Assembly: GCA_965203555.1 (NCBI GenBank)
Contig: CBDBCY010000004.1
Span: forward strand, 2,240,001-2,304,000
Direction: 5' to 3'
Length of the DNA stretch: 64,000 nucleotides
Source of the DNA: Acidimicrobiia bacterium
Lineage (GTDB): Bacteria; Actinomycetota; Acidimicrobiia; Spongiisociales; ZC4RG35
Every line of letters starts with the position of its first letter. Position 1 is the first letter of the stretch. Below are positions 31,432 through 52,180 of this stretch, in pieces. The notes beneath the pieces are model-generated. The model ran no database searches and had not been told where the DNA came from. It was given only the letters and a program-made list of their open reading frames with translations. The translations under genes and the position numbers were made by a program.

Positions 31432-32568
31432 TTAGGACCGGGGTAGGGCCTTGATCGCCAAGGAGAGGGGCGCGGGACGGGTACAGGTGCTTTCCACGTC
31501 AACATGGGCGCCGGATTCCGCTGCCTCCGCAATGGACAGGGCGATGTCCAGCACATGGTAGGCGACTTCGGCTGCTACCCGATGGGGACGGTCGTCGATG
31601 ATCCCTCGGGCGAGGTCCTCTACCCCGATACCTCGCAGTCCGGGGATGGGCTCTGAGGACCGGAAAGTCGTCCAAGGCACGTTGCGTTCCAGATCGAGCA
31701 TGGCCTTCTCCTCCTCGCCGTACTGCCTTATTTGGGGGGTTCCCGACCACAGATCGGGATCGGTCGTGCTGAGGGTGCCCTTGGTCCCGTACACCTCTAT
31801 GAAAGGCAGCCGGGTGGCCTGGACGTCGAACGTGGCGAGTAGGGGTCCGCTGATGCCGGACTCGAACTCGAGGATCGAAGTGATGTAGGTGGGAGTTTCC
31901 ACTTTGATCCGGGCGCCGTACTGCTCCGGCGAGGTAATCATCCGCTCCCCGAAGGTGATCCGGGAAATGGCTGCCACCCTGGCCATGGGACCGAGAAGAT
32001 TGATGAGGGCGGTCAGGTAATAGGGACCCACATCCAGCATCGGGCCCCCCGCCGGTCCATAGAAGAACGCCGGGCTTGGGTGAAAATGCTCCACTCCGTT
32101 GGACAAGAAGAAAGTGCCCATCCCCACCGGGGACCCGATCCAGCCGTCGTCGAGCAGTTTGCGGGAAGTCTGGAGGCCGCTGCCCAGGAAGGTGTCCGGG
32201 GCGCATGCCAGCCTGACGTCATTGTGGGCAGCCAAGTCGAGAAGATGCCTCGCCTGTTCCCGAGTCGGCGCCAGGGGCTTCTCCGAGAACACATGCTTTC
32301 CCGCTTCCAGAGCAGTCTGGGAGATTCCATAGTGCACTAGGGGTGGGGTGATATTGAGAACGATTTCGACCAGTGGGTCGCTCAGCAATTCTTCCAAGGT
32401 CCGATAAATCCGCGGGACACCGAAAGCCGCTGCCCGTTGGCGGGATTGGTTCTGGTCGACGTCGAAGCATCCCACCACCTCGATGGACGGCAGTGTCTTG
32501 AATCCCTCCAGGTACTGGAGGCTGACATGGCCGCAGCCCACGATCCCAACCCCGACCCTGCGAATCAT
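31432..32568 (-). CDS. Gfo/Idh/MocA family NAD(P)-dependent oxidoreductase
   Basis: GIVGCG, AGKHVFSEKP, APDTFLG, GGPMLDVGPYY. Start at 32568 overlaps the upstream stop (ATGA). Confidence 0.9.
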   Translation of the reverse strand: MIRRVGVGIVGCGHVSLQYLEGFKTLPSIEVVGCFDVDQNQSRQRAAAFGVPRIYRTLEELLSDPLVEIVLNITPPLVHYGISQTALEAGKHVFSEKPLAPTREQARHLLDLAAHNDVRLACAPDTFLGSGLQTSRKLLDDGWIGSPVGMGTFFLSNGVEHFHPSPAFFYGPAGGPMLDVGPYYLTALINLLGPMARVAAISRITFGERMITSPEQYGARIKVETPTYITSILEFESGISGPLLATFDVQATRLPFIEVYGTKGTLSTTDPDLWSGTPQIRQYGEEEKAMLDLERNVPWTTFRSSEPIPGLRGIGVEDLARGIIDDRPHRVAAEVAYHVLDIALSIAEAAESGAHVDVESTCTRPAPLSLAIKALPRS

Positions 32569-34784
32569 CGACGGATCCCCTTTGCCCGGGCCAAGAAGTT
32601 GTCGAGGACATTGCGGGTGACCTTTGCCACATTGCTGTTGCCGTCCTGGGTGGCGAGGAACGGGATCCAGTTCATCGAACCAACGGAGAAGACGCATCCG
32701 CCCTTGGGCCGTTCGATCAGCACCATGTCGGCCCGCACATCCGGGTCTCGGGCCGAGCCGAAGAAGTTATTCGTTTGCATGATGTCCTCGATGGCGCGCT
32801 GGAACTGTCCGTGGCGGCCTGAAGAAGTGGCCAGCAATTTAGTCTGGATCGGGGTACCCAATGCATAGTCCATTCGGTCAATTTCATCGCCTGCCGCTCC
32901 CATCAATGCCCCGCCGAGTCCGCTGTCGAACCCACCGATTATCTCATCCTTCCCTATCCCTTCGAAGACGAAGGCGACGTTGTTGTCGAACGAGTCGGGA
33001 CATCGCCGATAGCCGGCGGAGGTGCCCCAACCCATGGCGGTGAATCCCACGCCCACCAGCCTTTGCGGAGCCGTGCCCCGGTGCCGCCAGAGTCCTCCGA
33101 CTCTGTCCTCGAAACTGAGCCATTCCTCCCCCACCTCCGACGTCCAGTCCCGTGATCCGGCAAAGCCGCGTCGCATTTCGATGACCCCCGGCATATCGGG
33201 ATGGGTGGCGGTTACCCAGAAGAGACCGTTTCCTCCCAGGTACATCAGGCGCCCCCCGCACTCCAGCCAGTCTTCCACTGCTGCCATCCAATTGGGAGAT
33301 ACGTATTCAGGGTGACTTCCGGTGATCACCACCGAGTAGGAGGAGAGTAGATCGACTCCGTATGTATCCAGGTCCTCATCGGTAATCACATCGAATCGGT
33401 GGCCCTCGGATCGCAGCCACCGGAGAAGAGTGATGTCGGTGGAGAAGTGGCGAGGACCTCTGGTCCCCCACCAGTGGTATTCCGATGCGAAGGTTACGAT
33501 GGGGCGGTTGCGGGTGGCGTAGCAGATGCCACTGGCATCAGCGTGCAGGTTGTAGACCGAGGCGCCCAGATCAGGGCGTTCGGCCAGAAAGCTGTCGAAG
33601 GGATTCGACTCGTCGTAGGGGTGCATACCCACATCGGCGTGTGCTTCCTCGATGGCCACCGAGTCGGGATTGGGGTCCGGCCGGAGGTTCCCGTAGGCCA
33701 GATATGTGAAGGTGGGCATCAATACGGCTATATCAGGCTTGTCAGTTCTGCTGTGGACAAAGAACGGCAGTTCTGCCGAAGTCCCCCTGCTTTCGATCTG
33801 CATGGCATAGGCGCCGGGTTCCAGGTCCCGGGGAAGAGCGACGACCGCCGATACGTCCCAGTTCTTATCACCCACGTCATCACTATGGAAGTGGATGGCG
33901 TTTCGATGCACCGCCTGCTCCGTTAGTGACTGACGCCAGCTCCAGGAGTGGCCTTTCATCCGCAGGGCGGGAAGGTTGACGGTCCGACCGTGGCGATCCC
34001 CCGGACCGCGGTCGGGTACCCGGGTGGTGGCCTGCATCCGGGCGAAATCCCAGCATCCGATCACAGCAGCGCCTGGGACGTTGGCATGGCGTCCGCCCTC
34101 GTCCGGGGATCCTTCCACCCAGGACCGGTAGATAGCAGGCTGTTCGATCTTGCCGTCGTAGCAGCGGTCTACGGAAAAAGTACCGGCCGTGTCCTGGCCT
34201 CCAACCGCAGCTATGGTGATAGGACCATCAATGACAAGCGGCGTATTCTCCGGGGCTTGGTGGACAACCGCGGTTTCTTCCGAAGACTGCCGGCCGAGTT
34301 CTTCGACCTCGATAGCCTGTCGCCCGGTGGCCGTGTCGAATCCGGCGAAGATCCGATACCAGATCCTTTCCGAAAGAGCTACTTCGGAAACGACTTTCCA
34401 TCGGCGCCGGGCCCAGGATAGGTTGAAACAGGGACGGCCGGCTACATCAAGCGCCAGGGTCACGCCCTCGTTGGTGTTTGAGTCCCGCCAGTTCACCAGT
34501 GTCTGCTCTTCGCCGCGCCGGGGAAGGGTGGGCCAAACCCAAAGCCGCACGCTCACCTGTGTCAGGTGTTCAGGACCGGCGGCGGGGACGAAAACCATGG
34601 ATCCGACGGGTGACGGCGGCTGGCTTCCCGGGATCTGATCCTGACCGATTGACGGTACTCCTTCTCCTGGTGAATCGAGGGATATCAGATTGAAGGAGAA
34701 CGGATGAGCCTCGGTGTCGAGATGCATGCGAACCTCGTCACCGGGCATGTAGGACCATTGGTCAAGATACCCGCAAACCGCCAC
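32565..34784 (-). CDS. N,N-dimethylformamidase large (beta) subunit family protein with LamG-like domain
   Basis: GYLDQWSY, AIHFHSDD, PTFTYLAYGN, SVYNLHAD, GSHPEY, LMYLGGNG, GGLWR, VGVGF, AAGDEID, VRADMV, TRNVL. Confidence 0.88.
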   Translation of the reverse strand: MAVCGYLDQWSYMPGDEVRMHLDTEAHPFSFNLISLDSPGEGVPSIGQDQIPGSQPPSPVGSMVFVPAAGPEHLTQVSVRLWVWPTLPRRGEEQTLVNWRDSNTNEGVTLALDVAGRPCFNLSWARRRWKVVSEVALSERIWYRIFAGFDTATGRQAIEVEELGRQSSEETAVVHQAPENTPLVIDGPITIAAVGGQDTAGTFSVDRCYDGKIEQPAIYRSWVEGSPDEGGRHANVPGAAVIGCWDFARMQATTRVPDRGPGDRHGRTVNLPALRMKGHSWSWRQSLTEQAVHRNAIHFHSDDVGDKNWDVSAVVALPRDLEPGAYAMQIESRGTSAELPFFVHSRTDKPDIAVLMPTFTYLAYGNLRPDPNPDSVAIEEAHADVGMHPYDESNPFDSFLAERPDLGASVYNLHADASGICYATRNRPIVTFASEYHWWGTRGPRHFSTDITLLRWLRSEGHRFDVITDEDLDTYGVDLLSSYSVVITGSHPEYVSPNWMAAVEDWLECGGRLMYLGGNGLFWVTATHPDMPGVIEMRRGFAGSRDWTSEVGEEWLSFEDRVGGLWRHRGTAPQRLVGVGFTAMGWGTSAGYRRCPDSFDNNVAFVFEGIGKDEIIGGFDSGLGGALMGAAGDEIDRMDYALGTPIQTKLLATSSGRHGQFQRAIEDIMQTNNFFGSARDPDVRADMVLIERPKGGCVFSVGSMNWIPFLATQDGNSNVAKVTRNVLDNFLARAKGIRR

Positions 34785-34845
34785 GGTCTTCTCTCCTTTC
34801 AGATCTGGTTCAACCGGCGGGCAAAGTGTTTACTTCCGGTCAGAA

Positions 34846-35856
34846 TCAGGGGCCACTGGGGTTGGCGCCTCCGCCTTCCTCCTCCTCTTCCAAGGCTTCC
34901 GCCAGCGCCGATCGGGTTACGGCTCTCTCCCTCCTTTCTTCGGAGAATTGGTTGAGGGCCACGGCGCCGATCAGGAGGGCGCCTATCACGACATTGGTCC
35001 ACGTCACTTCGAATCCGATGGCTATCAGGCCTGATCGGATCGAGCCGATCAGGAATACGGCCAACAGGACCCCCCCAATGGGCGCCACCCCCCCGGTGAA
35101 CAGCACACCACCCAACAGGACAGCTGTCAACACCTGCAATTCATAACCGATGCCGGCGGTGGGAGCGGCGGTCCCGAATCGGCTGGCGCTCAACGTGGAG
35201 GCCAGGCCCACCAGGATGCCGTTGACGATGAACACGCCGATCACATACTTTCGGATCGGAATTCCCACTGACGCGGCCGCCCTGACGTTGGAGCCCACTG
35301 CCAGCAAACGACGGCCGATGTCAATCCGGTTTGCAAAGGCGAAGGCCAGCAAAGCCAGACCGATGAAAATCAGGACGTTGACCGGAATGGCGAAGAACTG
35401 ACCCCGACCCACCGTCCGGAATTCCTGTGGAACCCCTGCCACCGTTCTGCCTCTGGTGATCAGTATGACCACCCCGGCATACAGAGTCAGGGCGCCCAGG
35501 GTCACGACGATGGGAGACACCGCCAAACGGTGGACCATCACACCATTGATCCCGCCCAGGACGGCCCCCATCAGTGGTCCCAGCAAGAGCGCCAACGGCC
35601 AAGGCACACCGGCGGCGGCCGCCATGGATGCCACCACCCCGCATAGGGAAAACATCGAGCCGATCGAGATATCGATATTGCCCGAGGCCACCACGAAGGC
35701 GGATCCCAACGCTCCGATGCCCAATGACACCAATTGAATTGCTAGCACCCGGATGTTGGAAGGGGTTAGATAGTGGCTGGCCTGTAACTGCACGACGGTG
35801 ACCACAATGATCAACCCCAGCGCGAGCGCGCTACTCCGACCTACCCTGGTAGGCAC
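34846..35856 (-). CDS. Sugar ABC transporter permease (RbsC type)
   Basis: IDISIGS, IVVTLG, GRRLLAVGSN, GYELQVLTAVLLGG. Confidence 0.92.
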   Translation of the reverse strand: MPTRVGRSSALALGLIIVVTVVQLQASHYLTPSNIRVLAIQLVSLGIGALGSAFVVASGNIDISIGSMFSLCGVVASMAAAAGVPWPLALLLGPLMGAVLGGINGVMVHRLAVSPIVVTLGALTLYAGVVILITRGRTVAGVPQEFRTVGRGQFFAIPVNVLIFIGLALLAFAFANRIDIGRRLLAVGSNVRAAASVGIPIRKYVIGVFIVNGILVGLASTLSASRFGTAAPTAGIGYELQVLTAVLLGGVLFTGGVAPIGGVLLAVFLIGSIRSGLIAIGFEVTWTNVVIGALLIGAVALNQFSEERRERAVTRSALAEALEEEEEGGGANPSGP

Positions 35857-35863: not shown

Positions 35864-36631
35864 TCATTCTTTATGACCCATCATGGCGGCCAGAAGTTTA
35901 TCTCTGCGAATGGCGCTGGCCGGTTCATCGAGCGTGATCCTTCCCTGGAACATGGTTACCAGGCGATCACTGACGTTGAGAACGTGATCGAGGTTGTGGG
36001 AGATGATCACCACCCCGATCCCGCGTTCGACCATCCGCCTGATGCTCTTCAGAATGGTGTTCGCCTGACGGATTCCCAGTGCCGCGGTCGGTTCGTCCAT
36101 CAGCACCAGGCGGGGGTCTCCCCGCAGAGACCGGGCAATGGCAATGGCCTGCCGCTGCCCGCCGGAAAGCCGTTCGACCTTGGTTGCGCTGTGCGGTACG
36201 GATGCGCCCATACTTGCCAAGAGGTCCTTGGTTTCATTGCGGATCCGGCGACGATCCATCCAACCGATCGGCCCGAAACGCCACTTGGGTGTTTCGGCGT
36301 TTAGGAAGACGTTGCCAGGGACATCCAGTTCATCGCACAGATCCAGGTTCTGGGCGACCGTGGCGATTCCGACTCGGCGAGCATTACGAACCGACCACTC
36401 TTTCACTCGGTCGCCATGCACGCGGATCTCACCGATGTCGGGCGCCAACTCTCCGTTCATGACCCGCAGCAGCGTGGTCTTTCCCGCTCCGTTGTCTCCT
36501 ACCAGCCCTAAGCATTCGCCGGCTCTCAACGAGAGGCTCACCCCGTGGAGTGCCCGTACTCGCTCGTAGAATTTTGATATACCGGAGACACTGATGATGG
36601 TGGACCCGCTGTCTGCCGAATCCACCATCAT
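35864..36631 (-). CDS. Sugar ABC transporter single-domain ATPase
   Basis: GDNGAGKTT, LSGGQRQ, MDEPTAALG, ISHN. Confidence 0.93.
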   Translation of the reverse strand: MMVDSADSGSTIISVSGISKFYERVRALHGVSLSLRAGECLGLVGDNGAGKTTLLRVMNGELAPDIGEIRVHGDRVKEWSVRNARRVGIATVAQNLDLCDELDVPGNVFLNAETPKWRFGPIGWMDRRRIRNETKDLLASMGASVPHSATKVERLSGGQRQAIAIARSLRGDPRLVLMDEPTAALGIRQANTILKSIRRMVERGIGVVIISHNLDHVLNVSDRLVTMFQGRITLDEPASAIRRDKLLAAMMGHKE

Positions 36632-36659: not shown

Positions 36660-38753
36660 CTAATTACTCGGGGTGGTTTGGGGTTCGTCCCGGTATTCGA
36701 TCACACTGTCGATCAGATCCTCAACATACTGGGGGTACTCGCCGGAACTGTCCAGATCCTGGAGCAGCTGTTGGATGTCTGCCAGGTTGTTGGGGTCCAC
36801 CACTTGGCCGAGCATGTACACGGTGGGTGGTCTGGTCTCGCCTCTGGCGCAAGCTAGGGCATCCCGGAACATCTGGATCGAGGCCAGGTTGTTCTTGGAG
36901 TACATGTAAGCAGCCTGCAGTGGGGTGTCGCCTCGGGCCAGCACCTCGAGGCCGGCTTCGGAGACGTTGGTCACCGCTAGGAACACCTGTTCGGGATCGT
37001 CCAGGCCCTGTTCCGCCAGGGCCGCCAGTCCGGCCACTCCCGAGTCGATCTCTGGAGCGAACCAGATCCGGGCGTCAGGGTTGGCGGCTGCCATGTTGGC
37101 GAAGGCGGCGGCAATCGCCTCAGGACCCATCGCCTGAGCCTCGGCCACCACCTCGGCGCCGGGGACGACACTCTTCACGCCGTCGACAAAGCCGTTGCTC
37201 CGGGCCAGGATTGGCGGGTTGTCAGGACGTGCGATCAAGGCGATCTTGGGCGAGTCGTAACCGCGGGCGGCTGCCCACTCGCCAGCGTGAACACCTACCC
37301 CGTAGCCGCCCTGGTAGTTGTCCTCGTTCCAGTTCTGCGCTCCGGTCAGAGGAGTCTGGGACTCGTTGAGCACGCAAACGCCTCTCGATGCCGCTTCCAC
37401 CTGGAAGTCGAGGAAGGGCTCAGGGTTGATGTACTCCATGATGATCGCGTCAACGCCCGATTCCAGTAGGGCATAGGCGTCATCGAGCATCTGTACCTCA
37501 TTGACTTCCTTGGTGGGGGCGCTGTCCACTATCACCAGTTCGGCGCCCTGCCGGTCCGCCTCATGCTGGAAGTAGCGATACTGCTCCACATAGAACGGAT
37601 GGGTTGCGATGAGCGCCGGCACCCCAACCACAATCGGATCCTCGGGCCCGGGGGTGGTTTGGGGTTCGTCCCGGTATTCGATCACACTGTCGATCAGATC
37701 CTCAACATACTGGGGGTACTCGCCGGAACTGTCCAGATCCTGGAGCAGCTGTTGGATGTCTGCCAGGTTGTTGGGGTCCACCACTTGGCCGAGCATGTAC
37801 ACGGTGGGTGGTCTGGTCTCGCCTCTGGCGCAAGCTAGGGCATCCCGGAACATCTGGATCGAGGCCAGGTTGTTCTTGGAGTACATGTAAGCAGCCTGCA
37901 GTGGGGTGTCGCCTCGGGCCAGCACCTCGAGGCCGGCTTCGGAGACGTTGGTCACCGCTAGGAACACCTGTTCGGGATCGTCCAGGCCCTGTTCCGCCAG
38001 GGCCGCCAGTCCGGCCACTCCCGAGTCGATCTCTGGAGCGAACCAGATCCGGGCGTCAGGGTTGGCGGCTGCCATGTTGGCGAAGGCGGCGGCAATCGCC
38101 TCAGGACCCATCGCCTGAGCCTCGGCCACCACCTCGGCGCCGGGGACGACACTCTTCACGCCGTCGACAAAGCCGTTGCTCCGGGCCAGGATTGGCGGGT
38201 TGTCAGGACGTGCGATCAAGGCGATCTTGGGCGAGTCGTAACCGCGGGCGGCTGCCCACTCGCCAGCGTGAACACCTACCCCGTAGCCGCCCTGGTAGTT
38301 GTCCTCGTTCCAGTTCTGCGCTCCGGTCAGAGGAGTCTGGGACTCGTTGAGCACGCAAACGCCTCTCGATGCCGCTTCCACCTGGAAGTCGAGGAAGGGC
38401 TCAGGGTTGATGTACTCCATGATGATCGCGTCAACGCCCGATTCCAGTAGGGCATAGGCGTCATCGAGCATCTGTACCTCATTGACTTCCTTGGTGGGGG
38501 CGCTGTCCACTATCACCAGTTCGGCGCCCTGCCGGTCCGCCTCATGCTGGAAGTAGCGATACTGCTCCACATAGAACGGATGGGTTGCGATGAGCGCCGG
38601 CACCCCAACCACAATCGGATCCTCGGGTGCGTCAGTAGGCGCTGGCGCAGCAACCGCAGTGGTGGTGGTGGCTTCCTCTGCCTCACCGCAGGCTGCGGCC
38701 ACCAACCCCAGGACTAGGAGTCCCGTCAACAGGATATTGGTACGTAATCTCAT
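36660..38753 (-). CDS. Sugar ABC substrate-binding lipoprotein with two identical periplasmic-binding domains
   Basis: Lipobox VAAAC, Thr/Ala/Pro linker, HPFY, DNYQGG and ARSNGF class I binding-protein motifs, all occurring twice. Confidence 0.88.
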   Translation of the reverse strand: MRLRTNILLTGLLVLGLVAAACGEAEEATTTTAVAAPAPTDAPEDPIVVGVPALIATHPFYVEQYRYFQHEADRQGAELVIVDSAPTKEVNEVQMLDDAYALLESGVDAIIMEYINPEPFLDFQVEAASRGVCVLNESQTPLTGAQNWNEDNYQGGYGVGVHAGEWAAARGYDSPKIALIARPDNPPILARSNGFVDGVKSVVPGAEVVAEAQAMGPEAIAAAFANMAAANPDARIWFAPEIDSGVAGLAALAEQGLDDPEQVFLAVTNVSEAGLEVLARGDTPLQAAYMYSKNNLASIQMFRDALACARGETRPPTVYMLGQVVDPNNLADIQQLLQDLDSSGEYPQYVEDLIDSVIEYRDEPQTTPGPEDPIVVGVPALIATHPFYVEQYRYFQHEADRQGAELVIVDSAPTKEVNEVQMLDDAYALLESGVDAIIMEYINPEPFLDFQVEAASRGVCVLNESQTPLTGAQNWNEDNYQGGYGVGVHAGEWAAARGYDSPKIALIARPDNPPILARSNGFVDGVKSVVPGAEVVAEAQAMGPEAIAAAFANMAAANPDARIWFAPEIDSGVAGLAALAEQGLDDPEQVFLAVTNVSEAGLEVLARGDTPLQAAYMYSKNNLASIQMFRDALACARGETRPPTVYMLGQVVDPNNLADIQQLLQDLDSSGEYPQYVEDLIDSVIEYRDEPQTTPSN
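36670..38627. repeat. Direct tandem duplication, 2 x 977 bp (36670-37646 and 37651-38627), period 981 bp
   Basis: Identical sequence wherever compared. Alternative-frame ORFs also repeat identically at +981 (36827/37808, 36925/37906, 37287/38268). Confidence 0.97.
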
Positions 38754-38948
38754 GGGCAATTCTCCATTCACTCGGCTCTTACAAGTTCGGCGCTTCGGAC
38801 TCCCGTTGAGCGGGAGGTTACATCACTAAAACTCCGGTGAGACTCTCAAACAGCCATTTGTTTGGTGATGGGTTTTGGCTTTCACAGGAGCATTTGACCC
38901 CATCGATCTAAGATAAGTTGTCTAATCATCGCATCTAGGTGGTGGCCT

Positions 38949-41167: not shown

Positions 41168-41549
41168 CAACGGCCTGTTCGGGCACCTCACCAGGTTGCA
41201 GCATGTGAACATCCCGTCGACTGACCTGGCCAGATCCAGAGAGTTCTATCTGGAAAAGCTCGGCCTGCCCGAACTCCCCCGTCCGCCGTTCGAATCCCCT
41301 GGTGTCTGGGTTGGCGCCGGACCTGAGAACGCTATCCACATCAGCAAGGTTCCGGCCCTGGGGCCGAATCCCAACAATCACTTGGCCTTGGAGGTGGAGA
41401 ATTTGGATGATCTTGTGAAGGTTCTCACAGCTCGAGGAGTGGATTGTCGCCTTCCTCCGCATGTGGCCGCCGCCGGACGCCAGGCGTTTCTCAGCGATCC
41501 GGACGGCAACATGATCGAGTTGAACCAGCCGCCGGGCCAGACCGGGTAA
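41160..41549 (+). CDS. VOC/glyoxalase family protein
   Basis: LQHVNI, SREFY, HLALEV, DPDGNMIEL. Confidence 0.9.
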   Translation: MSDNGLFGHLTRLQHVNIPSTDLARSREFYLEKLGLPELPRPPFESPGVWVGAGPENAIHISKVPALGPNPNNHLALEVENLDDLVKVLTARGVDCRLPPHVAAAGRQAFLSDPDGNMIELNQPPGQTG

Positions 41550-43659: not shown

Positions 43660-43986
43660 CTACTCGGTGCCGCGGAAATTGCTTTCGTCTATCTGACCGC
43701 TCACAATCCAGATGACCCTCTTTGTGATGGCCGGGTCCACCTCCTTGCGATGTTTGGCCAACTGCTTTGAGAATCGGTGCTCATCCACGGCGGCCTCGTC
43801 GGCGTAGAGCTCGAACAGGGCGTAACGATTGGGGTTGCGGGCATCTACGAACACGTCGAAGACCAGGCAGCCCTCCTCGCCGTTCAGAGTGGCTTCGGAG
43901 TGATTCAGCATGTTGCCATGAAACTTGTCCCGCTGGGCGGGATCGATGTCCAATTCGACGTAGTAACCAATTTCTTTCATAGTCAT
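43660..43986 (-). CDS. ABM/LsrG-like cofactor-free monooxygenase or isomerase
   Basis: EEGCLVFDV, FELYADEAAVDEH. Confidence 0.85.
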   Translation of the reverse strand: MTMKEIGYYVELDIDPAQRDKFHGNMLNHSEATLNGEEGCLVFDVFVDARNPNRYALFELYADEAAVDEHRFSKQLAKHRKEVDPAITKRVIWIVSGQIDESNFRGTE

Positions 43987-44072: not shown

Positions 44073-44873
44073 TCAGAGTTTGTCAGATGAGAAGTCGAAT
44101 TCGTCCATGTTCGGGCCATGGCCGAGCATCGCCCAGCCTCCATCCACATAGATGATCTGGCCGGTGATCATCTCAGCGGCGTCGCTGGTAAGGAAAGTCA
44201 CCACTCCCACATAATCGTCGGGCGTCATCACCCGACCGAGCGGCGTCACCCTGGACCAGTCGTCAGCGTAGCCTTCGCTGTACCGGAGGTTGCGGGCGGT
44301 GAGAGTGGCGCCCGGCGCTACTGCGTTCACCCTGACACCGGGGGCCAGATCCAGGGCCAACTGCCTGGTCATGGATTCCAGGCCACCCTTGGCCATGGTG
44401 TACGCGCCGTGGAAAGGCATGATCGCCTCCACCGCGATGCTTGAGATGTTGACTATCGATCCCCCTTCACTGTCGTTCATGATCTCCGAAGCCTTCAGAG
44501 ACAGGAAGAAGGGACCCTTCAGCACCGTATTGACCACGTCGTCAAAGTCCACCTCGGTAGTTTCGTGAATGGGTCCGAAGCGGGTGCGCGCCGCGTTGTT
44601 CACCAGGATGTCAAGTCTTCCGAAGCGCTCCGCCACCTCATCCACCGCGGCCAAACACCGGTTGAGGTCGGCGAGTTCCAGTTGTACCGGGCAGGCGTCG
44701 CCGCCTGCATCGGTTATGGCTGCGACGGTCTGCTCGGCCCCGTCGGCGTCGGTGTGGTACCCGATGGCCACCGAGGCGCCATGCCGGGCCAGTCCTATGG
44801 CGATCCCCTCTCCAATTCCCTTGCTCGCTCCGGTTACGAAGGCTGTCTTTCCTGCATGGCTGGGGGTACCCAT
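44073..44873 (-). CDS. SDR family oxidoreductase
   Basis: TGASKGIG, NNAA, NISS, YTMAK, VDGG. Confidence 0.93.
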   Translation of the reverse strand: MGTPSHAGKTAFVTGASKGIGEGIAIGLARHGASVAIGYHTDADGAEQTVAAITDAGGDACPVQLELADLNRCLAAVDEVAERFGRLDILVNNAARTRFGPIHETTEVDFDDVVNTVLKGPFFLSLKASEIMNDSEGGSIVNISSIAVEAIMPFHGAYTMAKGGLESMTRQLALDLAPGVRVNAVAPGATLTARNLRYSEGYADDWSRVTPLGRVMTPDDYVGVVTFLTSDAAEMITGQIIYVDGGWAMLGHGPNMDEFDFSSDKL

Positions 44874-44908: not shown

Positions 44909-45616
44909 TCAGGCTCGGATGGACTCCAAATAAACCAGGGAAGTTGCCAGGTGTTCTTCCATGGCGGCTCGGGCGCCCTCCACATCACGGTTGGTAACGG
45001 TCTTCATGATGCGTTCATGTTCGGGGAGGCTCCGCATGATGCGATGGTCGGGCCGGGCCAGAGGTCGCATGGCAGTTTGAAGCGCCTTCTGCAAAGGTTC
45101 CAGCATCTTGCCGAGCACCACGTTTCCGGTTGCCTTGAATATGGCCGAATGGAAGCTCGCGTCGGTTTTGAGATAGTTCCTCTCATCCAGTGGATTGACC
45201 ACGGCGGACTTGGCGGCGATCTCCAAGTTTTCGAAGGCATCCTTGATAACTTGGAGTTCCTCGTCCGACGCCCGCTGGGCGGCCAGCGCCACTGCTTCCA
45301 CTTCCAAAATCCGGCGGGCTTCCAAGAAATCTCCCAGAACCCGGTTGCTGCGGGCGGTGGCCAGGGTGATATCAAGGACATCGGCGTCAAGGATGTCCCA
45401 TTGCTCGGACGGTTGGACAACCGCTCCCACCCCGTGCGTGACTTTGACCAAGCCCCGCTCCTCGAGAGCCCGCACCGACTCCCGGATGGTGCCCCTGCTG
45501 GCCCCGAAGCGCTCCGTCAGATCATTCTCCTTGGGAAGCCGCTCTCCTTCGGAGTATCGACCCGAAATGATATCTCCCATCAGGACGCGCATCGCATCCC
45601 TGCTCAGCCTCGACAT
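44909..45616 (-). CDS. GntR/FadR family transcriptional regulator
   Basis: LPKENDL, SRGTIRE winged HTH, FCD domain (FHSAI, EHERI). Confidence 0.93.
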   Translation of the reverse strand: MSRLSRDAMRVLMGDIISGRYSEGERLPKENDLTERFGASRGTIRESVRALEERGLVKVTHGVGAVVQPSEQWDILDADVLDITLATARSNRVLGDFLEARRILEVEAVALAAQRASDEELQVIKDAFENLEIAAKSAVVNPLDERNYLKTDASFHSAIFKATGNVVLGKMLEPLQKALQTAMRPLARPDHRIMRSLPEHERIMKTVTNRDVEGARAAMEEHLATSLVYLESIRA

Positions 45617-45691: not shown

Positions 45692-47593
45692 TCACGCTCC
45701 TGCGTAGTAAAACCTCTGGGACTCGCGACCCTTGAGGTGCAATTCGGCAATCTGGCGCATCTCGGCCTTTTCGGACTCTTCGGCAATACCCACATCCCAC
45801 CAGGCCCCCCCGCCGGGCAGCATCCGGTAGGGCTCCACGGGGCAAACGATCACCACGGGGAGTGCGGTCCGGCGAGCTTCGGCAAGGGCATCTTCGAGGT
45901 CATCGACATCGGGAGCATGGAATACCCGGCAGCCAAGACTCTGAGCGTTGAGAACGAAGTCGACGGGAAGGACGCTGCCGGTGAGACGTTGCGTGTCGTC
46001 CTCCCGATACCGCAGTTCAGTGCCGAACAGAACGCCGGTCGTGCCCTCCTGAAGGGCTCTGATGGATTGGTACCCGTCGTTGGTGACCAGGATCACCGTA
46101 ACTTTGATTCCTTCTTGAACAGCCGAGACTATCTCTGGATTGGACAACAGCCACCCTCCCTCACCCTGGATAACGTATACCTCGGTGTCCCCCGGTCGAG
46201 CCATCTTGTATCCCATGGCCCCGGGCACCTCGTGGCCCATGCAGGAATAGCCGAACTCGAGATGCACCTCGGTCCCGTTCGAGTGATCCCACATCTTGTG
46301 CACGTCGGCCGGTGGGGATCCCGCCGCCGCCACCATCACATCCCCCGGTTGGGCCTGGCCGTTCACGGTCCGTAACACTTCACCCTGGCTCATGATCTGT
46401 CCCGGTGGACGTTCCAAGTGGTGGTCCATCAGGTCGGCCCAGACTCGGCCCTCGGCTGTGGTCTGGGTTCGGTACTCGTCGCTCGCTGTCCAGCCGGCTT
46501 GTTCCAGAATCTCGCCGAGCCTCTCCACCGACAGTTTGGCGTCGGCCACAATCGGTGCACCGCCCAGTTTGTAGGCGTCGCGGCCGGCGACATTTATACC
46601 GACAAACCGCACTCCGCGGTTTTGGAAGAGAGAGTTGGAAGCGGTGGTGAAGTCCTGCAGCCTGGTTCCTACGCAGATCACCAGGTCGGCGCGCGACGCC
46701 ATGGCATTGGCGCCACCAGTGCCCGTGACTCCCACCGCGCCCAAGTGATACGGTCCCGCCGGAACAGACGCCTTTCCGGCAAAGGTCTCACCCACCGGCA
46801 CCCCGAAACGCTCAGAGAACTCCGCTACCGTGGCGCCCGCCCGCGAGTAGCGAATCCCGCCACCGGCGATCAGGAACGGTCGTTCGGAAGCCCGGATCAA
46901 CTCGGCAGCCCGGGCGATCTGCTCTTCGGCCGGGGGCCTGCGAGGTATGTGCCACACCCGTGGTTCGAAAAAGCGTACCGGAAAGTCCCACGCTTCTCCT
47001 TCTGTGTCCTGGTGGAAAGAGATCGTCACTGCTCCCGTATCGGCTTGATCGGTCAACACTCGGCAGGCCTCGGGAAGCGCGGTGAGAAGATGCTCGGGAT
47101 AGCTGACCCGATCAAAGAACCGTGATACCGGCCGGAAGGAGTCGTTCACCGTGATATCCCCGCCCATCAGGTCCTCGATCTGCTGGAGCACTGGCCCTTG
47201 GCGCCGCCGAACGAAAGTGTCGGCCGGCAACAGCAGCACCGGTAACCGGTTGGAGGTGGCAGTGGCCGCACCCGTGACCATGTTGGTGGCGCCGGGACCG
47301 ATGGAGGCGGCACAGGCGAAGGTAGAAAGACGGTCTTTCGCCTTGGCGTAGCCCATGGCCTGATGCACCGCCGACTGCTCGTTCTTGGCCTGATAGAACG
47401 CGAGGTCGTGACCGTACTCCTCGAGCGCCTGCCCCAGTCCCACCACGTTGCCGTGTCCGAAGAGCCCGAATATCCCCCGGAACAGGCGCTCCCGCTCACC
47501 GTCGAATTCTGTCCATTGGGCCTGAAGGAATTTCACGATGGCTTGGGCAGTGGTAAGCCGGATCGTCCTGTCCATATCTTTGCCGTTCATCAT
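45692..47593 (-). CDS. iolD: 3D-(3,5/4)-trihydroxycyclohexane-1,2-dione acylhydrolase (ThDP-dependent)
   Basis: TIRLTTAQA, FGHGNV, NEQ, SIGPGATNMVT, PVLQQIE, GTRLQDFTTAS, EFGYSCMG, WWDV. Confidence 0.93.
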   Translation of the reverse strand: MMNGKDMDRTIRLTTAQAIVKFLQAQWTEFDGERERLFRGIFGLFGHGNVVGLGQALEEYGHDLAFYQAKNEQSAVHQAMGYAKAKDRLSTFACAASIGPGATNMVTGAATATSNRLPVLLLPADTFVRRRQGPVLQQIEDLMGGDITVNDSFRPVSRFFDRVSYPEHLLTALPEACRVLTDQADTGAVTISFHQDTEGEAWDFPVRFFEPRVWHIPRRPPAEEQIARAAELIRASERPFLIAGGGIRYSRAGATVAEFSERFGVPVGETFAGKASVPAGPYHLGAVGVTGTGGANAMASRADLVICVGTRLQDFTTASNSLFQNRGVRFVGINVAGRDAYKLGGAPIVADAKLSVERLGEILEQAGWTASDEYRTQTTAEGRVWADLMDHHLERPPGQIMSQGEVLRTVNGQAQPGDVMVAAAGSPPADVHKMWDHSNGTEVHLEFGYSCMGHEVPGAMGYKMARPGDTEVYVIQGEGGWLLSNPEIVSAVQEGIKVTVILVTNDGYQSIRALQEGTTGVLFGTELRYREDDTQRLTGSVLPVDFVLNAQSLGCRVFHAPDVDDLEDALAEARRTALPVVIVCPVEPYRMLPGGGAWWDVGIAEESEKAEMRQIAELHLKGRESQRFYYAGA

Positions 47594-47629: not shown

Positions 47630-49060
47630 CTAACCGGGATGGATCACCACCGTCTTGGACTCGGTCATCTCTTCAATGGCGTACTTGGGCCCCTCCTTGC
47701 CGATCCCGCTTCCCTTCAGCCCACCGTATGGCATAGGGTCTACCCGCCACAGCGGGCCCCAGTTAATGTGCACGTTTCCTGCGTCCACCTCCCGGGCGAA
47801 ACGGACGGCGGCGCCGATATCGCGGGTGAACACTCCTGCCCCCAATCCGTAGGAGGTCTGGTTGCACAGGGCTATAGCCTCATCGATACTGTCGACCGGA
47901 ACAACGCCCACGGCCGGACCGAACAGTTCCTCGGAAAAGAGAGTCGTGTCCCGCGGAACATCCGCCACCACGGTGGCTTGGTGCAATGCGCCGTTCACTT
48001 CCCCGCCCACCACTACTCTGGCGCCCTTGGATTCGGCGTCGGCTATAACTCTGCGTACCCGATCGGCCTCTCCGGAACTTATCATCGGACCCATGTCGGT
48101 GCTCTCGTCGATTGGATCACCGGGCTGAATCGCTGAGAATTGATCCCCCAGGGCATCCAGAAAGTCCTGATAGGAACGACGCTCCACCAGCACCCGCTGG
48201 GCAGAGATACACACCTGTCCGGCGTTGACCGTACCGGCTTTGGCCGTTGCCGAGGCAGCCAGGTCCAGATCAGCGTCAGGGAGGACCACCACGGGACAAT
48301 TGGCGCCCAATTCGAGCAGGAGCCTCTTCACCCCTGCGACTTCGGTAATGCTCTTACCCACCGCCGCGCTGCCGGTAAAACTGACCACCCTGACCCGATC
48401 GTCGGTGGATAGCCGGGCGCCCACCTCCCCGCCGGGTCCGGTGATGCACTGAACGGCGCCTTCGGGAAAGCCGATGTCCAGCAGAAGGCTCATGAAGGCA
48501 AGAGCGCTGAGGGGCGTGTAGGAGGCCGGCTTCACAATCACCGGGTTTCCTGCTGCCAGTGCAGGCCCTACCTTGTGGGCGACCAGCAGGAGGGGATAGT
48601 TGAAGGGAGTGATGGCGGCCACCACCCCGGCGGGCTGGCGAAGCGTGAAACCCAAGCGTCCTTCACCTCCCGGGCTGCCGTCGAGTGGGAGCACCTCACC
48701 CTCGATACGGCGAGCTTCACCTGCGCAATAGCGGAGCAAGGCGCCTAATCGCCCGGCTTCTCCACGCGCCTCGGTGACAGTCTTTCCCTGCTCGGCGACC
48801 ACCAGCCCGGCCAGATACTCGGTGGCTTCGTCGCATTTGAGAGCGGCTCTTTCCAGCAGGTCGGCCCGTTGGTGGGCGCTGAGTGCTCTCATCGGTTTGG
48901 CGGCCGCAGCCGCCGCCGTCAAAGTGGCTTCGATATCCTGCTCTGTGACCGAGGAGATCTCTGCGACCACCTCTCTGTTATAGGGATTCAAGACGCCCAT
49001 CGGGGTGCCTCGCGGCGCTTGGCCGGCGGAGAGCCGGGGATCCTGCAGAGTTTCAATCAT
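47630..49060 (-). CDS. Aldehyde dehydrogenase (lactaldehyde DH-like, not obviously IolA)
   Basis: ITPFNYP, FTGS, LELG, GQVCIS, EELFGP, PYGGLKGSG. Confidence 0.92.
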   Translation of the reverse strand: MIETLQDPRLSAGQAPRGTPMGVLNPYNREVVAEISSVTEQDIEATLTAAAAAAKPMRALSAHQRADLLERAALKCDEATEYLAGLVVAEQGKTVTEARGEAGRLGALLRYCAGEARRIEGEVLPLDGSPGGEGRLGFTLRQPAGVVAAITPFNYPLLLVAHKVGPALAAGNPVIVKPASYTPLSALAFMSLLLDIGFPEGAVQCITGPGGEVGARLSTDDRVRVVSFTGSAAVGKSITEVAGVKRLLLELGANCPVVVLPDADLDLAASATAKAGTVNAGQVCISAQRVLVERRSYQDFLDALGDQFSAIQPGDPIDESTDMGPMISSGEADRVRRVIADAESKGARVVVGGEVNGALHQATVVADVPRDTTLFSEELFGPAVGVVPVDSIDEAIALCNQTSYGLGAGVFTRDIGAAVRFAREVDAGNVHINWGPLWRVDPMPYGGLKGSGIGKEGPKYAIEEMTESKTVVIHPG

Positions 49061-49088
49061 ATTTGAAGCCTAGGGGTGCCCATCAGGC

Positions 49089-49979
49089 TTACAGCCCAAG
49101 GGCCCGCAAGTATTCGAAGGTCCGCCAGGCGGCAGGAAAGGGTTTGTCCGGTGGTGCGGGATACATGTCTTGTTCCACGGTGGCATGACCTTCGAAACCG
49201 GCGTCTTTCAAGGCTTTGGCCATCTCCGCAAAGTCGATCACCCCGTACACCGGCTCGCAGAACACGCCCATCTCGACTGCCTTGGCAAAGGTGATTCCCT
49301 CTCGGCGGACCCGTTGCAGAATCTCCCCATCCACGTTCTTGAGATGGAAGTATTCGGTGCGGTCGGCGTGTTTCTTATAGAACCCGACCGCGTCTCCCCC
49401 TAGATAGGCATGATGGCCGGTGTCCAGACACAGGGCGATCAGTCCCGGGTCGGTGTCAGCCAGGAATCGCTCGATCTGGTCCTCGGTTTCTACGTGGGTC
49501 TCTGCGTGAGGGTGGAACACGGCTCTGAGCCCGTGGTCTGCCGCGATCCCGGCAATTCGATGGGTGGTGTCAATCAGGGCTCGCCATTGGTCGTCGGTCA
49601 GCGTGTCGCTTCGTAATATCTCTCCGGTGAACAGGTCCGAGTAGGTACCGGCGATTACGATCAGGTACCCTGCCCCGACCGAGACCAGGGATTCGCAGGC
49701 GCCGGTGGTCTCCGCTTCCAGTGCGGGCCAATGATCCGGATCGTCCAGGAATCCCATGGTGAAGGTGCCAGAGACCCTCAAGCCGCGGCCAGCCAACTCT
49801 TTTCGCAGAATCTCGGTATCGGTTGGAAGGTATCCGTAAGGGCCAAGTTCAATCCATTCGTATCCCACTGCACTGATCTCATCAAGGCACCGCTCCCACG
49901 GCATCTGGCGCGGGTCGTCGGGAAACCAGATACCCCAAGAGTTGGGTGCGGTTCCAAGTTTTAGTCTTGAGTCGCCCAT
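49089..49979 (-). CDS. iolE: Inosose dehydratase-like TIM-barrel protein
   Basis: APNSWGIWF, ELGPYGYLP, FHPHA, LCLDTGH, HLK, VEQD. Upstream of iolD. Confidence 0.8.
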   Translation of the reverse strand: MGDSRLKLGTAPNSWGIWFPDDPRQMPWERCLDEISAVGYEWIELGPYGYLPTDTEILRKELAGRGLRVSGTFTMGFLDDPDHWPALEAETTGACESLVSVGAGYLIVIAGTYSDLFTGEILRSDTLTDDQWRALIDTTHRIAGIAADHGLRAVFHPHAETHVETEDQIERFLADTDPGLIALCLDTGHHAYLGGDAVGFYKKHADRTEYFHLKNVDGEILQRVRREGITFAKAVEMGVFCEPVYGVIDFAEMAKALKDAGFEGHATVEQDMYPAPPDKPFPAAWRTFEYLRALGL

Positions 49980-49982
49980 CGT

Positions 49983-50933
49983 TCACCTCCTTGGTGCTAC
50001 AGGGGTTTGGAGGAATTCAAGCAAGTTGTCTATGCATTGGTTCAGCATCAACCGGATGGATTTTCTGCTGAGCCCGGCAATGTGCGGAGACACGACGGTG
50101 TTGGGTAGCTGGAGCAGGGGGGAATCCTGTGGCGGTTCCTTCACGAAGACATCCAATCCGGCGCCGGCTACTCGCCCGGACCGGATCGCTTCGGCCAGGG
50201 CTTCCTCATCCACGATGGGTCCCCGAGCGGTGTTGATGAGAATCAATCCGGGTCGGGCTATCGCCAGCTGGCGGTTGCCGATCATGTTGCGGGTGGCCGG
50301 GGTCAAAGGACAGTGGATTGTGATGATCTCGCTCCACTTCATCAACTCCTCAAGGGTGACGAGCGGATAGGGAGAGGCATTGGTGATCTGGGGATCGCAC
50401 ACTCGGATGTCCACTTCAAAGCCCGCCAAGCGCCGGGCAACCGTTTTCCCGATTCGACCGTACCCGATCAGCCCGACACGAGCCCCGGTCAGTTCTCCGC
50501 CGGCAAGTCGGCCTGCCCTGTCCCACAAGCCCCTGCGCACCGCCGCATCGTTGTCCACCAGGCGCCGTACCACCGTCAGAATCAATGCCATTGTATGGTC
50601 GGCGCAGGAGTTGTGATTGGCGCCGGGCGTAGTGACGATTTTTACCCCTGCCTCCCCGGCGGCCTCGGTGTCGATGTTGTCCAAACCCACGCCGGTTCTC
50701 GCTACCACCCTCAGCATCGGAGAAGCGGCGAACACTTCTGCGGTGAACGGGTCGCCGCTGACAATGGCCCCCACGGACCCCGCCAACAGGTTGATCAGGT
50801 CGTCAGGACTCCGCCTTCCGTCGTAAGGGGCGTACCGGACGCGGTATCCGGCCGATTCAATCCGCCCAGCCATGGACGGATCGTCGGGGCGGAAACCGGG
50901 CGAGGTGATGAGGATGACCGGTCGGGCAGTCAC
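49983..50933 (-). CDS. D-isomer-specific 2-hydroxyacid dehydrogenase
   Basis: ARTGVGLDNID, GLIGYGRIG, INTARG, LDVF, SPHIAG. GTG start at 50933 overlaps the upstream stop. Confidence 0.88.
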   Translation of the reverse strand: MTARPVILITSPGFRPDDPSMAGRIESAGYRVRYAPYDGRRSPDDLINLLAGSVGAIVSGDPFTAEVFAASPMLRVVARTGVGLDNIDTEAAGEAGVKIVTTPGANHNSCADHTMALILTVVRRLVDNDAAVRRGLWDRAGRLAGGELTGARVGLIGYGRIGKTVARRLAGFEVDIRVCDPQITNASPYPLVTLEELMKWSEIITIHCPLTPATRNMIGNRQLAIARPGLILINTARGPIVDEEALAEAIRSGRVAGAGLDVFVKEPPQDSPLLQLPNTVVSPHIAGLSRKSIRLMLNQCIDNLLEFLQTPVAPRR

Positions 50934-51184
50934 GATGGGCCTGGGCGGTGGCGGTCGTCGGTAAGTTCCGCGTCGAAAACCCCGATGCCCCACAGGATCA
51001 TTCCTGGGCCCGAGAGGATGAGAATGAAAGGAATTATCAGCCTCTTGAATGAAAACGCACTGCCGGGTTCCTGCGAAGGTTCCCGGTTGAGATCGGTTTT
51101 GCCAGGCCGGGAGACGATGGTGTACAGCAGCAAGCCGATACCGGTCCCCAGCCATATCAGGCCGATCCATCCACCGCTGTCCAT
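50930..51184 (-). CDS. Small two-TM membrane protein, first gene of the iol-like operon
   Basis: AGGAG RBS, two hydrophobic segments, GTGA coupling to the next gene. Confidence 0.65.
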   Translation of the reverse strand: MDSGGWIGLIWLGTGIGLLLYTIVSRPGKTDLNREPSQEPGSAFSFKRLIIPFILILSGPGMILWGIGVFDAELTDDRHRPGPS

Positions 51185-51319
51185 TTTGATCTCCTACTAA
51201 CGGATGTCTAATGATAGGATGTCCTTTCCTATACTCGCCCTTGATGATGTCAGTAGTCGCCGGGGGTATTGACGGAGAGGTTGGGGACTCTTCCTCCCTG
51301 CTGAGCGAGAGGAGTTGGT

Positions 51320-52180
51320 ATGGCGCGATTAGGAGCTTCGATAACCGACTATCTGGGGCAGGTCGACCCCGATGAATATCTCAGGGAGTGTGCAGACCAG
51401 GGTTATCGGTCGGCGCCCTGCCCGGTCATCGACCCTGAGGACACCGAAGTTGTGCGACATGTCCGCCGGGAGTTCGCCAGGGCGGACGTGGTCATTTCGG
51501 AGGTGGCGGCCTGGGTTAACCCCATGGATCCCGATCCTGGCCTGAGAAAGGCGGCCCGAGCCGAAATCACACAAGCCATGGCATTGGCAGACGAGTTGGG
51601 GGCAGCGTGCTGCACTACGGTCTCTGGAGCTTTGGCGTCTGCTGACACGCCCGACTCCCACGTAGGGCATCATCCGGACAATTTCACTGCCGACGCCGTT
51701 GACGCGGTGATCGAGTGGATTCGCGATGTTCTGGCAGCAGTGAAACCCACCCAGAGTTTCCTGACACTGGAGATGTGTCCTTGGGCGATTGTGGACTGCC
51801 CCGAGGTTTATATTGATGTTCTGGATCGGGTGGATGACCCAGGGCTCGCCGTCCATCTCGACCCTGCCAACCACATGACTTCTCCTCGCGCTCTGTTCAA
51901 CTCCGGGGCGGTGATCGAGGATCTTTTCGATCAATTGGGCAAGTGGACCAAGGCCTGCCATGCGAAGGACGTCACCTTCGTGGGGAGTCCTTCCATTGTG
52001 GCGATGAAAGAGGTGCCACCCGGCACCGGATACCTGGATTACGATGCCTTTCTCCGTTGCATGTCACGGCTCGACGGCAATGTCCCTCTGATAATGGAAC
52101 ACCTGCCTGACCGGGAGACATACGCTCGAAGCGGCGCCCGTATCAGGGAAGTGGCCGATGTCCATGGAGTCGCTCTGTAG
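51320..52180 (+). CDS. Sugar phosphate isomerase/epimerase (xylose isomerase-like TIM barrel)
   Basis: LEM, HLDPAN, CHAKD, PGTGYLDY, IMEH. Confidence 0.88.
   Translation: MARLGASITDYLGQVDPDEYLRECADQGYRSAPCPVIDPEDTEVVRHVRREFARADVVISEVAAWVNPMDPDPGLRKAARAEITQAMALADELGAACCTTVSGALASADTPDSHVGHHPDNFTADAVDAVIEWIRDVLAAVKPTQSFLTLEMCPWAIVDCPEVYIDVLDRVDDPGLAVHLDPANHMTSPRALFNSGAVIEDLFDQLGKWTKACHAKDVTFVGSPSIVAMKEVPPGTGYLDYDAFLRCMSRLDGNVPLIMEHLPDRETYARSGARIREVADVHGVAL

Follow-up and report, generated by a model that had tools for sequence, protein, structure and literature searches.

What do enzymes of the N,N-dimethylformamidase (DMFase) family do in nature? The question is raised by positions 31432-52180 of a 64,000-nucleotide stretch of an Acidimicrobiia genome (below, the window, i.e., G000:C4:2240001-2304000 of a 3.4-Mb genome in four contigs), in which a homologue of the DMFase large subunit, DMFL, is encoded in one operon with a sugar-type ABC importer and in the vicinity of genes related to iolE and iolD. 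DMF is a synthetic solvent. An earlier note on this DNA had stated that the natural substrates of DMFase homologues are largely unknown, yet a second activity, that of an N-acetyl-(R)-beta-phenylalanine acylase, does exist; solved structures of the family document only these two activities, on DMF and on N-acetyl-beta-Phe. Genes of the DMFase family are nonetheless widespread, being present in 4.5% of complete genomes according to an excerpt of a preprint (10.1101/2021.03.18.435917).

Our answer, held tentatively and at somewhat less than even confidence, is that 31432-52180 constitutes an accessory, mobilisable and probably co-regulated catabolic island, built of an upper and a lower module, in an uncultured, sponge/coral-associated genus of Acidimicrobiia. 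The earlier note had proposed that the locus imports an N-acylated aminocyclitol or amino sugar, deacylates it and directs it into a variant inositol route. This was borne out insofar as there is one co-inherited island, while the linkage turned out to be confined to the genus, the locus to be modular and part of it to be resident DNA. Genes of the window were called from the listing of open reading frames (ORFs) combined with Pfam and NCBIfam profile scans, and all the genes named previously were located within 31432-52180:

31432..32568, minus strand: GfoA, Gfo/Idh/MocA NAD(P) dehydrogenase (PF01408 and PF22725)
32565..34784, minus strand: DMFL, single-subunit iron amidohydrolase of the DMFase / N-acetyl-beta-Phe acylase family (PF20254, 268.9 bits)
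34846..35856, minus strand: ABC permease of the ribose/sugar type (PF02653 BPD_transp_2, 108.1 bits)
35864..36631, minus strand: ABC ATPase with a single ABC domain, 255 amino acids (PF00005, 104.4 bits)
36660..38771, minus strand: SBP, binding protein of the importer (PF13407 Peripla_BP_4, 75.9 bits, two stretches)
38920..38929, plus strand: candidate operator box GTCTAATCAT in the divergent SBP/GfoB promoter region, conserved in six congeners
38949..40097, plus strand: GfoB, dehydrogenase of the levoglucosan / scyllo-inositol type (NF052479, 308.1 bits, cut-off 650)
40076..41167, plus strand: GfoC, Gfo/Idh/MocA dehydrogenase (Pfam)
41160..41549, plus strand: VOC/glyoxalase-fold protein (PF00903, 50 bits)
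41566..42543, plus strand: HSL-type esterase (PF07859, 174.7 bits)
42590..43642, plus strand: alpha/beta hydrolase (PF00561 and PF12697)
43660..43986, minus strand: ABM-fold (LsrG-like) protein (PF03992, 46.7 bits; NF007791, 32.9 bits, cut-off 135)
44073..44873, minus strand: SDR, short-chain dehydrogenase (PF13561, 210 bits)
44909..45616, minus strand: GntR/FCD (FadR-subfamily) regulator (PF07729, 101.7 bits; PF00392, 59.6 bits)
45692..47593, minus strand: IolD2, thiamine pyrophosphate-dependent ring-opening dione hydrolase (TIGR04377, 788.2 bits, cut-off 715)
47630..49060, minus strand: ALDH, aldehyde dehydrogenase located between IolE2 and IolD2 (PF00171, 500 bits)
49089..49979, minus strand: IolE2, IolE-like TIM-barrel dehydratase (TIGR04379, 170.9 bits, cut-off 290)
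49983..51170, minus strand: D-2-hydroxyacid dehydrogenase with a hydrophobic N-terminal extension (PF02826, 188.8 bits)
51206..51215, plus strand: second copy of the box, GTCTAATGAT, in the divergent 2-hydroxyacid dehydrogenase/TIM2 promoter region, present in five congeners as GTCTAATCATAGAATGTC
51320..52180, plus strand: TIM2, xylose-isomerase-like TIM barrel (PF01261, 67.6 bits)

The genes of the importer, DMFL and GfoA do form one tight operon, as previously noted, in the order SBP-ATPase-permease-DMFL-GfoA on the minus strand, with spacers of 28, 7 and 61 nucleotides followed by a 4-nucleotide overlap. The DMFL stop codon and the GfoA ATG overlap as ATGA, so that DMFL and GfoA are translationally coupled; GfoA, also recognized before, starts at 32568 and not at 32697. 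Another operon on the minus strand runs from the 2-hydroxyacid dehydrogenase gene through IolE2, ALDH, IolD2, GntR/FCD and SDR to the gene of the ABM-fold protein. The gene arrangement is not a matter of chance, as the whole block is syntenic in other genomes. An assembly chimera was ruled out, the block being present in eight other assemblies and DNA contigs of run X1 lying on all 30 bins of the island, and the window stretch also occurs in coral, sponge and marine metagenome runs.

The evidence for a single island comes, in the first place, from 16 congeneric genomes. DMFL orthologues (75-88% identity) were found in eight of them, most of the others carrying only a 34-35% paralogue, and IolD2 orthologues (82-91%) in exactly the same eight, the remaining eight having only the IolD1 type (42-44%). 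The DMFL operon and the iolD/iolE operon are thus present or absent together in 16/16 congeners. Six of the eight orthologous loci comprise the whole block from TIM2 to GfoA, and in the other two the contigs end inside the block. Moreover, in two congeners (G010 and G013) the block lies away from the chromosomal suf site occupied in the window and adjoins a tyrosine integrase whose G010 and G013 copies are 92% alike, with TIM2 as the outer edge of the block in both cases; the G013 block adjoins a transposase and an OLD-like ATPase as well, and no tRNA gene was found next to the integrase-linked block. The two operons behave as one co-inherited and co-mobilised island. As island-bearing and island-less genomes were placed in both main clades of a midpoint-rooted tree based on sufD alone, and a GntR/FCD orthologue was left behind in the island-less G008, repeated loss of the island looks likely.

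Not everything within 31432-52180 belongs to this island. The gene order at the site is sufB-DUF4015-(variable genes)-GfoC-VOC-esterase-hydrolase-UDG-sufD, and it was compared across seven sufB-sufD regions, i.e., those of six island-less congeners and of G013, whose island is located elsewhere. The esterase, the hydrolase and GfoC were each found in 6/7 of these regions and VOC in 5/7. Orthologues of the alpha/beta hydrolase (83-92% identity) adjoin UDG-sufD in island-less congeners, and the HSL-type esterase is not in the block of G010 and G013. Since both esterases are present at the same chromosomal site without the island, they are resident genes, and they probably stand outside the island pathway. 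A resident copy of GfoC (73-80% identity) is also found at the suf site, and GfoC and VOC occur inside the G010/G013 block as well. The previous listing of both esterases and GfoC-VOC as cluster members therefore has to be narrowed: copies of GfoC-VOC do travel in the block, whereas the two esterases and one GfoC-VOC copy are resident. It should be mentioned that the suf operon itself is split in the window, with sufB at 17503-18918 and sufD, Rieske and sufC at 53037-55464 (sufB and sufD are 34 kb apart). Accessory genes (DUF4015, the GfoC-VOC-esterase-hydrolase operon and UDG) part sufB and sufD in all congeners in which the interval was read, and this interval acts as a hotspot of accessory genes.

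A further link between the two operons is a rare sequence box. With 0.08 matches expected, the window contains two copies of the box GTCTAATNAT, and none of 100 shuffles gave two matches. There are four copies in the whole genome, two of them at the divergent promoter regions of the island, 29 nucleotides upstream of GfoB and 36 nucleotides upstream of the 2-hydroxyacid dehydrogenase gene, respectively. The box is kept at the SBP/GfoB region in six congeners and at the 2-hydroxyacid dehydrogenase/TIM2 region in five, and a less exact copy is located between GntR and IolD2. No box was found between sufB and sufD in genomes without the island, the one GTCTAAT match of these regions being upstream of sufB. 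The two operons are probably co-regulated, and we infer that the box belongs to the GntR/FCD protein, the presumed regulator of the island. A box-like site at C4:308082, inside an AAA-domain gene by Fic and serpin genes, was taken as a chance match. Scans with promoter and terminator consensus sequences gave counts at or below chance (4 versus 4.6 expected and 9 versus 14.2 expected, respectively).

As for expression, 19 of the 30 island bins are covered by RNA-library contigs of a coral metatranscriptome (16/22 records at least 99% alike), and 11 and 9 of the 30 bins by those of two sponge metatranscriptomes, mostly on importer genes. Such contigs may stem from DNA, hence they are no proof of transcription, just as the uncovered parts are no sign of silence, and they provide a weak hint of island expression.

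The central enzyme of the upper module is DMFL, whose PF20254 (DMFA2_C) score of 268.9 bits compares with a cut-off of 27. Its best solved relative is the N-acetyl-(R)-beta-Phe acylase 8huy (expect value (E) 4.6e-88, residues 2-733 of 739 aligned), an activity known here from PDB molecule names and entry titles only, and it aligns over residues 2-732 with the DMFase large subunit 6lvb, DmfA2 of Paracoccus sp. DMF (E 8.9e-82). Passages of the report on DMFase (PMC7686228) give Y399, Y440 and E521 as iron ligands and H519, N547 and E657 as catalytic residues. All of them are kept in DMFL: Y364, Y411 and E493 align with the 2-Tyr-1-Glu ligands, and H491, N519 and E634 with His519, Asn547 and Glu657. 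A 25-sequence family alignment shows no variation at Y364, Y411, E493, H491 and E634 and at least 90% conservation of N519, and none of the six varies among nine orthologues. The DMFase homologue recognized by the earlier note is thus an end-to-end one, and from its residues it looks catalytically intact. Direct reading of the sequence revealed no signal peptide.

According to the same passages (PMC7686228), DMFase requires a 15-kDa small subunit for its activity. At the locus, no gene for such a subunit adjoins DMFL, there being 61 nucleotides to the permease gene and GfoA overlapping the stop codon, and for this reason DMFL resembles the single-chain acylase and not DMFase proper. A small subunit fused into the permease was also considered, but the 37-amino acid tail of the permease had no PDB match at E <= 10. 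The acylase (8huy/8i59/8i5a) is likewise one large polypeptide without a listed small subunit, and 8huy and DMFL have the motifs YxxY, GSHPEY and GGNG in common in the printed alignment. The two differ in that the acylase substrate is an N-acetyl amino acid, whereas DMFL sits in the operon of a sugar-type importer with a Gfo dehydrogenase. Phe693 of DMFase, which narrows the pocket, aligns with a Gln of DMFL, in a poorly aligned loop. More distant relatives of DMFL, at 58-68%, are P0011 (65%), P0012 (58%) and P0013. The genome also has a second DMFase-family gene 150 kb upstream (L012, G000:C4:2078000-2097999), which faces an Opp-type importer, followed by SDR and phosphotriesterase-family genes, and is near genes for diaminopentanoate-dehydrogenase-like and enolase-superfamily proteins. 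Phosphotriesterase-family genes were also observed within 10 kb of DMFase-family genes in 6/79 loci of other lineages, several of them sponge-associated (neighbourhoods of this kind are L012, L057, L105, L112, L116, L119 and L122).

The importer is of the sugar type, as had been claimed, with its permease and SBP in the BPD_transp_2 and Peripla_BP_4 families. These two CUT2-like hallmarks are present and the third, a two-domain ATPase of about 500 amino acids, is not: the ATPase matches only positions 2-243 of sugar-type two-domain models that are 492-513 positions long. All cut-offs of named sugar equivalogs in NCBIfam were missed by the importer proteins, the best models for the permease being those of allose and arabinose permeases, both below cut-off. 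The SBP was correctly identified in the earlier note; its 703-amino acid ORF proved, however, to be an in-frame tandem duplication of the whole binding-protein unit, in which a probable lipoprotein signal is followed by two complete Peripla_BP_4 units. The duplication has a period of 981 nucleotides with 977 bases identical, and it recurs with the same period in six genomes, i.e., that of the window (36660-38771) and five congeners (L041, L046, L048, L051 and L054), with a half-to-half likeness of 91-100% (three genomes at 100%, one at 99.8% and two at 91-93%). A comparison between genomes, by contrast, shows differences of 5-15% among orthologous units. This pattern has the appearance of an old duplication that gene conversion has homogenised. 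Single-unit SBPs are found in G005 and G001, and an RNA-library contig joining 37268 to 38254 corresponds to a single-unit form. Only eight SBP relatives were obtained at E <= 1e-10, and more distant ones (P0123-P0127) are at 57-71%; the protein is an orphan clade of its family, for which the Atlas label is generic Peripla_BP_4 only.

The best PDB relatives of GfoA are scyllo-inositol and sugar dehydrogenases (E about 4e-19), and GfoB matches 4h3v (6.8e-76), 6a3f (2.8e-74) and 5ya8 (3.7e-63). GfoB stays below the cut-off of the levoglucosan dehydrogenase equivalog NF052479 (308.1 versus 650 bits), and the IolG equivalog TIGR04380 (cut-off 355) was reached neither by GfoA (64.7 bits) nor by GfoB (113.3) or GfoC (62.1).

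In the lower module, the presence of iolD was confirmed (TIGR04377, 788.2 bits, above 715), IolD2 being 41.5% identical to IolD1 of the same genome. For iolE the result is mixed, because an IolE-like protein is indeed present but scores 170.9 bits, under the TIGR04379 cut-off of 290. All PDB matches of IolE2 are IolE proteins (9zmu, 5.4e-28; 3cny, 1e-27). Failure at this cut-off is not diagnostic in the lineage, as the canonical cluster's own IolE does no better (no NCBIfam match at E <= 1e-50). No NCBIfam equivalog was reached by ALDH, and TIM2 had no NCBIfam match and no PDB match at E <= 1e-5. The 2-hydroxyacid dehydrogenase has an N-terminal extension of about 100 amino acids, its catalytic domain beginning near residue 104. 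A GGAG ribosome-binding site precedes the extension, whose initial part is hydrophobic, so that the enzyme may be membrane-anchored.

The lack of iolB and iolC in the cluster, emphasized by the earlier note, was confirmed for the window (Pfam and NCBIfam), but both genes are present elsewhere in the genome. They belong to a canonical iol cluster at a distance of 1.3 Mb (C4:902-922 kb), which includes iolD1 (830 bits), iolB (296.7 bits, cut-off 205) and iolC (298.2 bits, cut-off 300), the latter two at C4:917.7-919.5 kb, as well as an IolE-type barrel, a Cgl0159-like protein and its own importer. Its paralogues of IolE2, GfoB, the 2-hydroxyacid dehydrogenase and SDR are 31-43% identical to the island proteins (43% for GfoB). 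While the canonical myo-inositol pathway runs through IolG-IolE-IolD-IolB-IolC-aldolase, the island is devoid of IolB, IolC and aldolase, has ALDH between IolE2 and IolD2, and has an amidohydrolase attached. Furthermore, the island-bearing genomes G002 (a single contig) and G012 gave no match for iolB and none of the IolD1 type. The ring-opening branch of the island therefore cannot depend on IolB there, and from the same finding ALDH would be expected to oxidise the IolD2 product in place of the IolB/IolC steps. Literature searches, mostly at the level of abstracts, yielded no published account of an oxidative fate of 5-deoxyglucuronate.

From this gene content we infer the class of substrate and the order of steps as follows. 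The lipoprotein-anchored tandem SBP, the sugar-type permease and the half-size ATPase would import a polar, amide-bearing compound, whose amide would be split in the cytoplasm by the Fe(III) enzyme DMFL. Most likely a small acyl group would be freed from a larger amine, because the closest solved relative of DMFL acts in this way. GfoA, made in step with DMFL, and GfoB would oxidise hydroxyls of the ring or sugar, IolE2 would eliminate water or an amine next to the new ketone, and IolD2 would open the resulting dione ring. ALDH could then turn the aldehyde product into an acid, so that IolB and IolC would not be needed, and the 2-hydroxyacid dehydrogenase, SDR, the ABM protein and TIM2 may trim the product. 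Both divergent promoters would be controlled by the GntR/FCD regulator via the GTCTAATCAT boxes.

A number of observations weigh against such a single pathway. The co-occurrence in congeners counts as a single event, as the genomes are kin and the genes physically linked. DMFL had no match in 20 other genomes of the family and a 37% relative in 1/24 genomes from other families of the order, and no orthologue was found outside the genus of the window in a sample of 401 genomes of the order (107 genera). For the wider DMFase family, 80 loci with 10-kb flanks (1 congeneric and 79 others) were collected by tblastn at E <= 1e-8 and at least 50% query cover. The most common neighbours of the 79 non-genus loci were Opp-type permeases (13), compared with 6 of the BPD_transp_2 type and 1 Gfo, and none of the 79 had an IolD or IolE orthologue within its flanks; three IolD/IolE matches at 26-32% identity are at superfamily level only. 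The search for recurring neighbourhoods that the earlier note had proposed thus shows the linkage conserved only in close relatives (75-88%); it was not seen at the 79 loci or in 400 further genomes from the order, and the refuting condition set by that note, a linkage not conserved in other genomes, applies by half. More distant orthologous loci were likewise not found in scans of JGI metagenome contigs, and literature searches, again mostly of abstracts, revealed no published link between DMFase-like and iol genes. A comparison of longest contigs among the cluster members listed (15 of 21 in one cluster) showed no length common to the 65% DMFL cluster and the 69-75% IolD2 clusters, which is weak evidence. 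In the island, no aminotransferase or deaminase that could deal with the amine of an aminocyclitol was found (Pfam, NCBIfam), and the SBP, with a best PDB match of E 3.9e-4, has diverged too far to reveal its class of ligand.

Other observations of this kind concern the independence of the modules. G702 (OZ253564.1), a metagenome-assembled genome of Ca. Spongiisociaceae in the same order and of a sponge-type lifestyle, keeps the IolE2-ALDH-IolD2 triad in the same order and orientation (70/68/72% identity), without the amidase operon. A peptide-type importer (SBP_bac_5) precedes the triad there, and an HpcH/HpaI aldolase, which has only 30-34% relatives in the genome of the window and none near the island, directly follows IolD2. 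No Gfo genes were found within 60 kb of this triad, and in place of a DMFL orthologue there is a 38%-identical family member 27 kb away, the closest DMFL relative outside the genus. The occurrence of the triad without the amidase operon in another family implies that the locus is modular. Within the genus, G005 has kept DMFL without IolE2 and the 2-hydroxyacid dehydrogenase, and in G002 and G012 the 2-hydroxyacid dehydrogenase and TIM2 are parted by an additional sugar-type importer, which means that the lower module may have its own cargo. As a side observation, the region of the G702 triad (G702:C1:2520001-2580000; L176-L178) also holds a sulfatase, a PhyH-type dioxygenase, a phosphotriesterase-family protein, an SMP-30-type lactonase and two Opp-type importers.

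These data make it quite possible, and an option to be taken seriously, that two independent pathways reside on one island with no hand-over of metabolites. The first (importer, DMFL and GfoA, perhaps with GfoB) would serve an amide-bearing sugar-like compound, and the second (IolE2-ALDH-IolD2) would be a plain inositol/cyclitol branch, with the regulator perhaps in common. The triad of G702 with its own importer and aldolase, the second importer on the TIM2 side in G002 and G012, the DMFL operon of G005 that outlived the loss of IolE2, and the absence of iol linkage elsewhere in the DMFase family all agree with this. So does the position of IolD2 among its relatives, which fall into three tiers (82-91% in the genus, 69-75%, with P0136-P0145, and 53-59%), the last being a broad actinobacterial set annotated by its sources as IolD. 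On the other side, the island has a single importer in the window, G003, G010 and G013, the same rare box stands at both promoter regions, and the parts were co-present or co-absent in all 16 congeners and moved together to the integrase site.

Returning to the reading of one connected island, it can be extended to the salvage of host metabolites, with the DMFase-family enzyme taking the committing step on a natural N-acylated or N-linked cyclitol of the sponge or coral holobiont and the triad working as an IolB/IolC-free, non-phosphorylative ring-opening branch. In this version, which in its entirety is rather unlikely, the substrate might be an N-acyl inosamine or, more boldly, a mycosporine-type compound linked through an enaminone, and oxidation to a deoxy-aldaric acid would replace the isomerisation and phosphorylation of the IolD product.

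The pathway first suggested for the locus is more specific, and in that exact form distinctly unlikely. It has an N-formyl- or N-acyl aminocyclitol (inosamine) deacylated by DMFL and oxidised, with beta-elimination of the amine leading to IolD2. It would suit the closest solved DMFL relative, which takes acetyl off a bulky amine, the resemblance of GfoB to scyllo-inositol dehydrogenases, and IolE2 and IolD2 as cyclitol-ring enzymes; besides, a ketone beside the amine would permit elimination without an aminotransferase. An aminocyclitol precedent is the moc locus of Sinorhizobium, which catabolises rhizopine (3-O-methyl-scyllo-inosamine), an aminocyclitol feeding the iol pathway, and the island has the same cast of a binding-protein importer, a Gfo/Idh/MocA dehydrogenase, an IolE-like TIM barrel and a GntR regulator. 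To our knowledge, the moc locus is without a DMFase-family enzyme, and the island, for its part, is without oxygenase genes for demethylation. The rhizopine binding-protein model NF052284 had no match to the island SBP at E <= 1e-3 but does match the canonical iol cluster's own binding protein (313 bits, cut-off 420), no island protein reaches an equivalog of the known inosamine pathway (NCBIfam), and an amino sugar or another N-linked polyol would fit equally well. On balance, an N-acyl aminocyclitol is plausible as the substrate but unproven.

Finally, a small amide outside the carbohydrates, such as a formamide or an N-acetyl amino acid, is quite improbable as the substrate of DMFL, although most of the family may use such compounds; the importer would in that case be misnamed as one for sugars. 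The permease and SBP belong to sugar-type families and DMFL is coupled to a dehydrogenase of the sugar/cyclitol type, even if the two characterised relatives use DMF and N-acetyl-beta-Phe, members of the family (among them the paralogue in this genome) are mostly found by peptide-type importers, and the SBP is an orphan.

Two other elements of the window were observed outside the island. A 10-kb block between DUF4015 and the island (20801-31405), present in some congeners and missing from others, encodes three luciferase-like monooxygenases, an amidohydrolase, an M20 peptidase, an S33 hydrolase and an NMT1-type ABC importer, and a nucleotidyltransferase/HEPN pair at 10435-11471 resembles a toxin-antitoxin module.

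For the DMFase family, the locus presents an apparently intact member in a defined setting, in which import, a coupled dehydrogenase, a regulator together with its candidate operators and ring opening are all represented, and thereby a testable natural setting and a short list of proteins for ligand screening. Inositols and related host compounds are thought to be important in sponge and coral habitats, as stated in an excerpt of a published account (PMC12008989). The IolE2-ALDH-IolD2 triad, conserved across two families and present in genomes without an iolB match, may represent a variant lower cyclitol pathway of sponge and coral symbionts.

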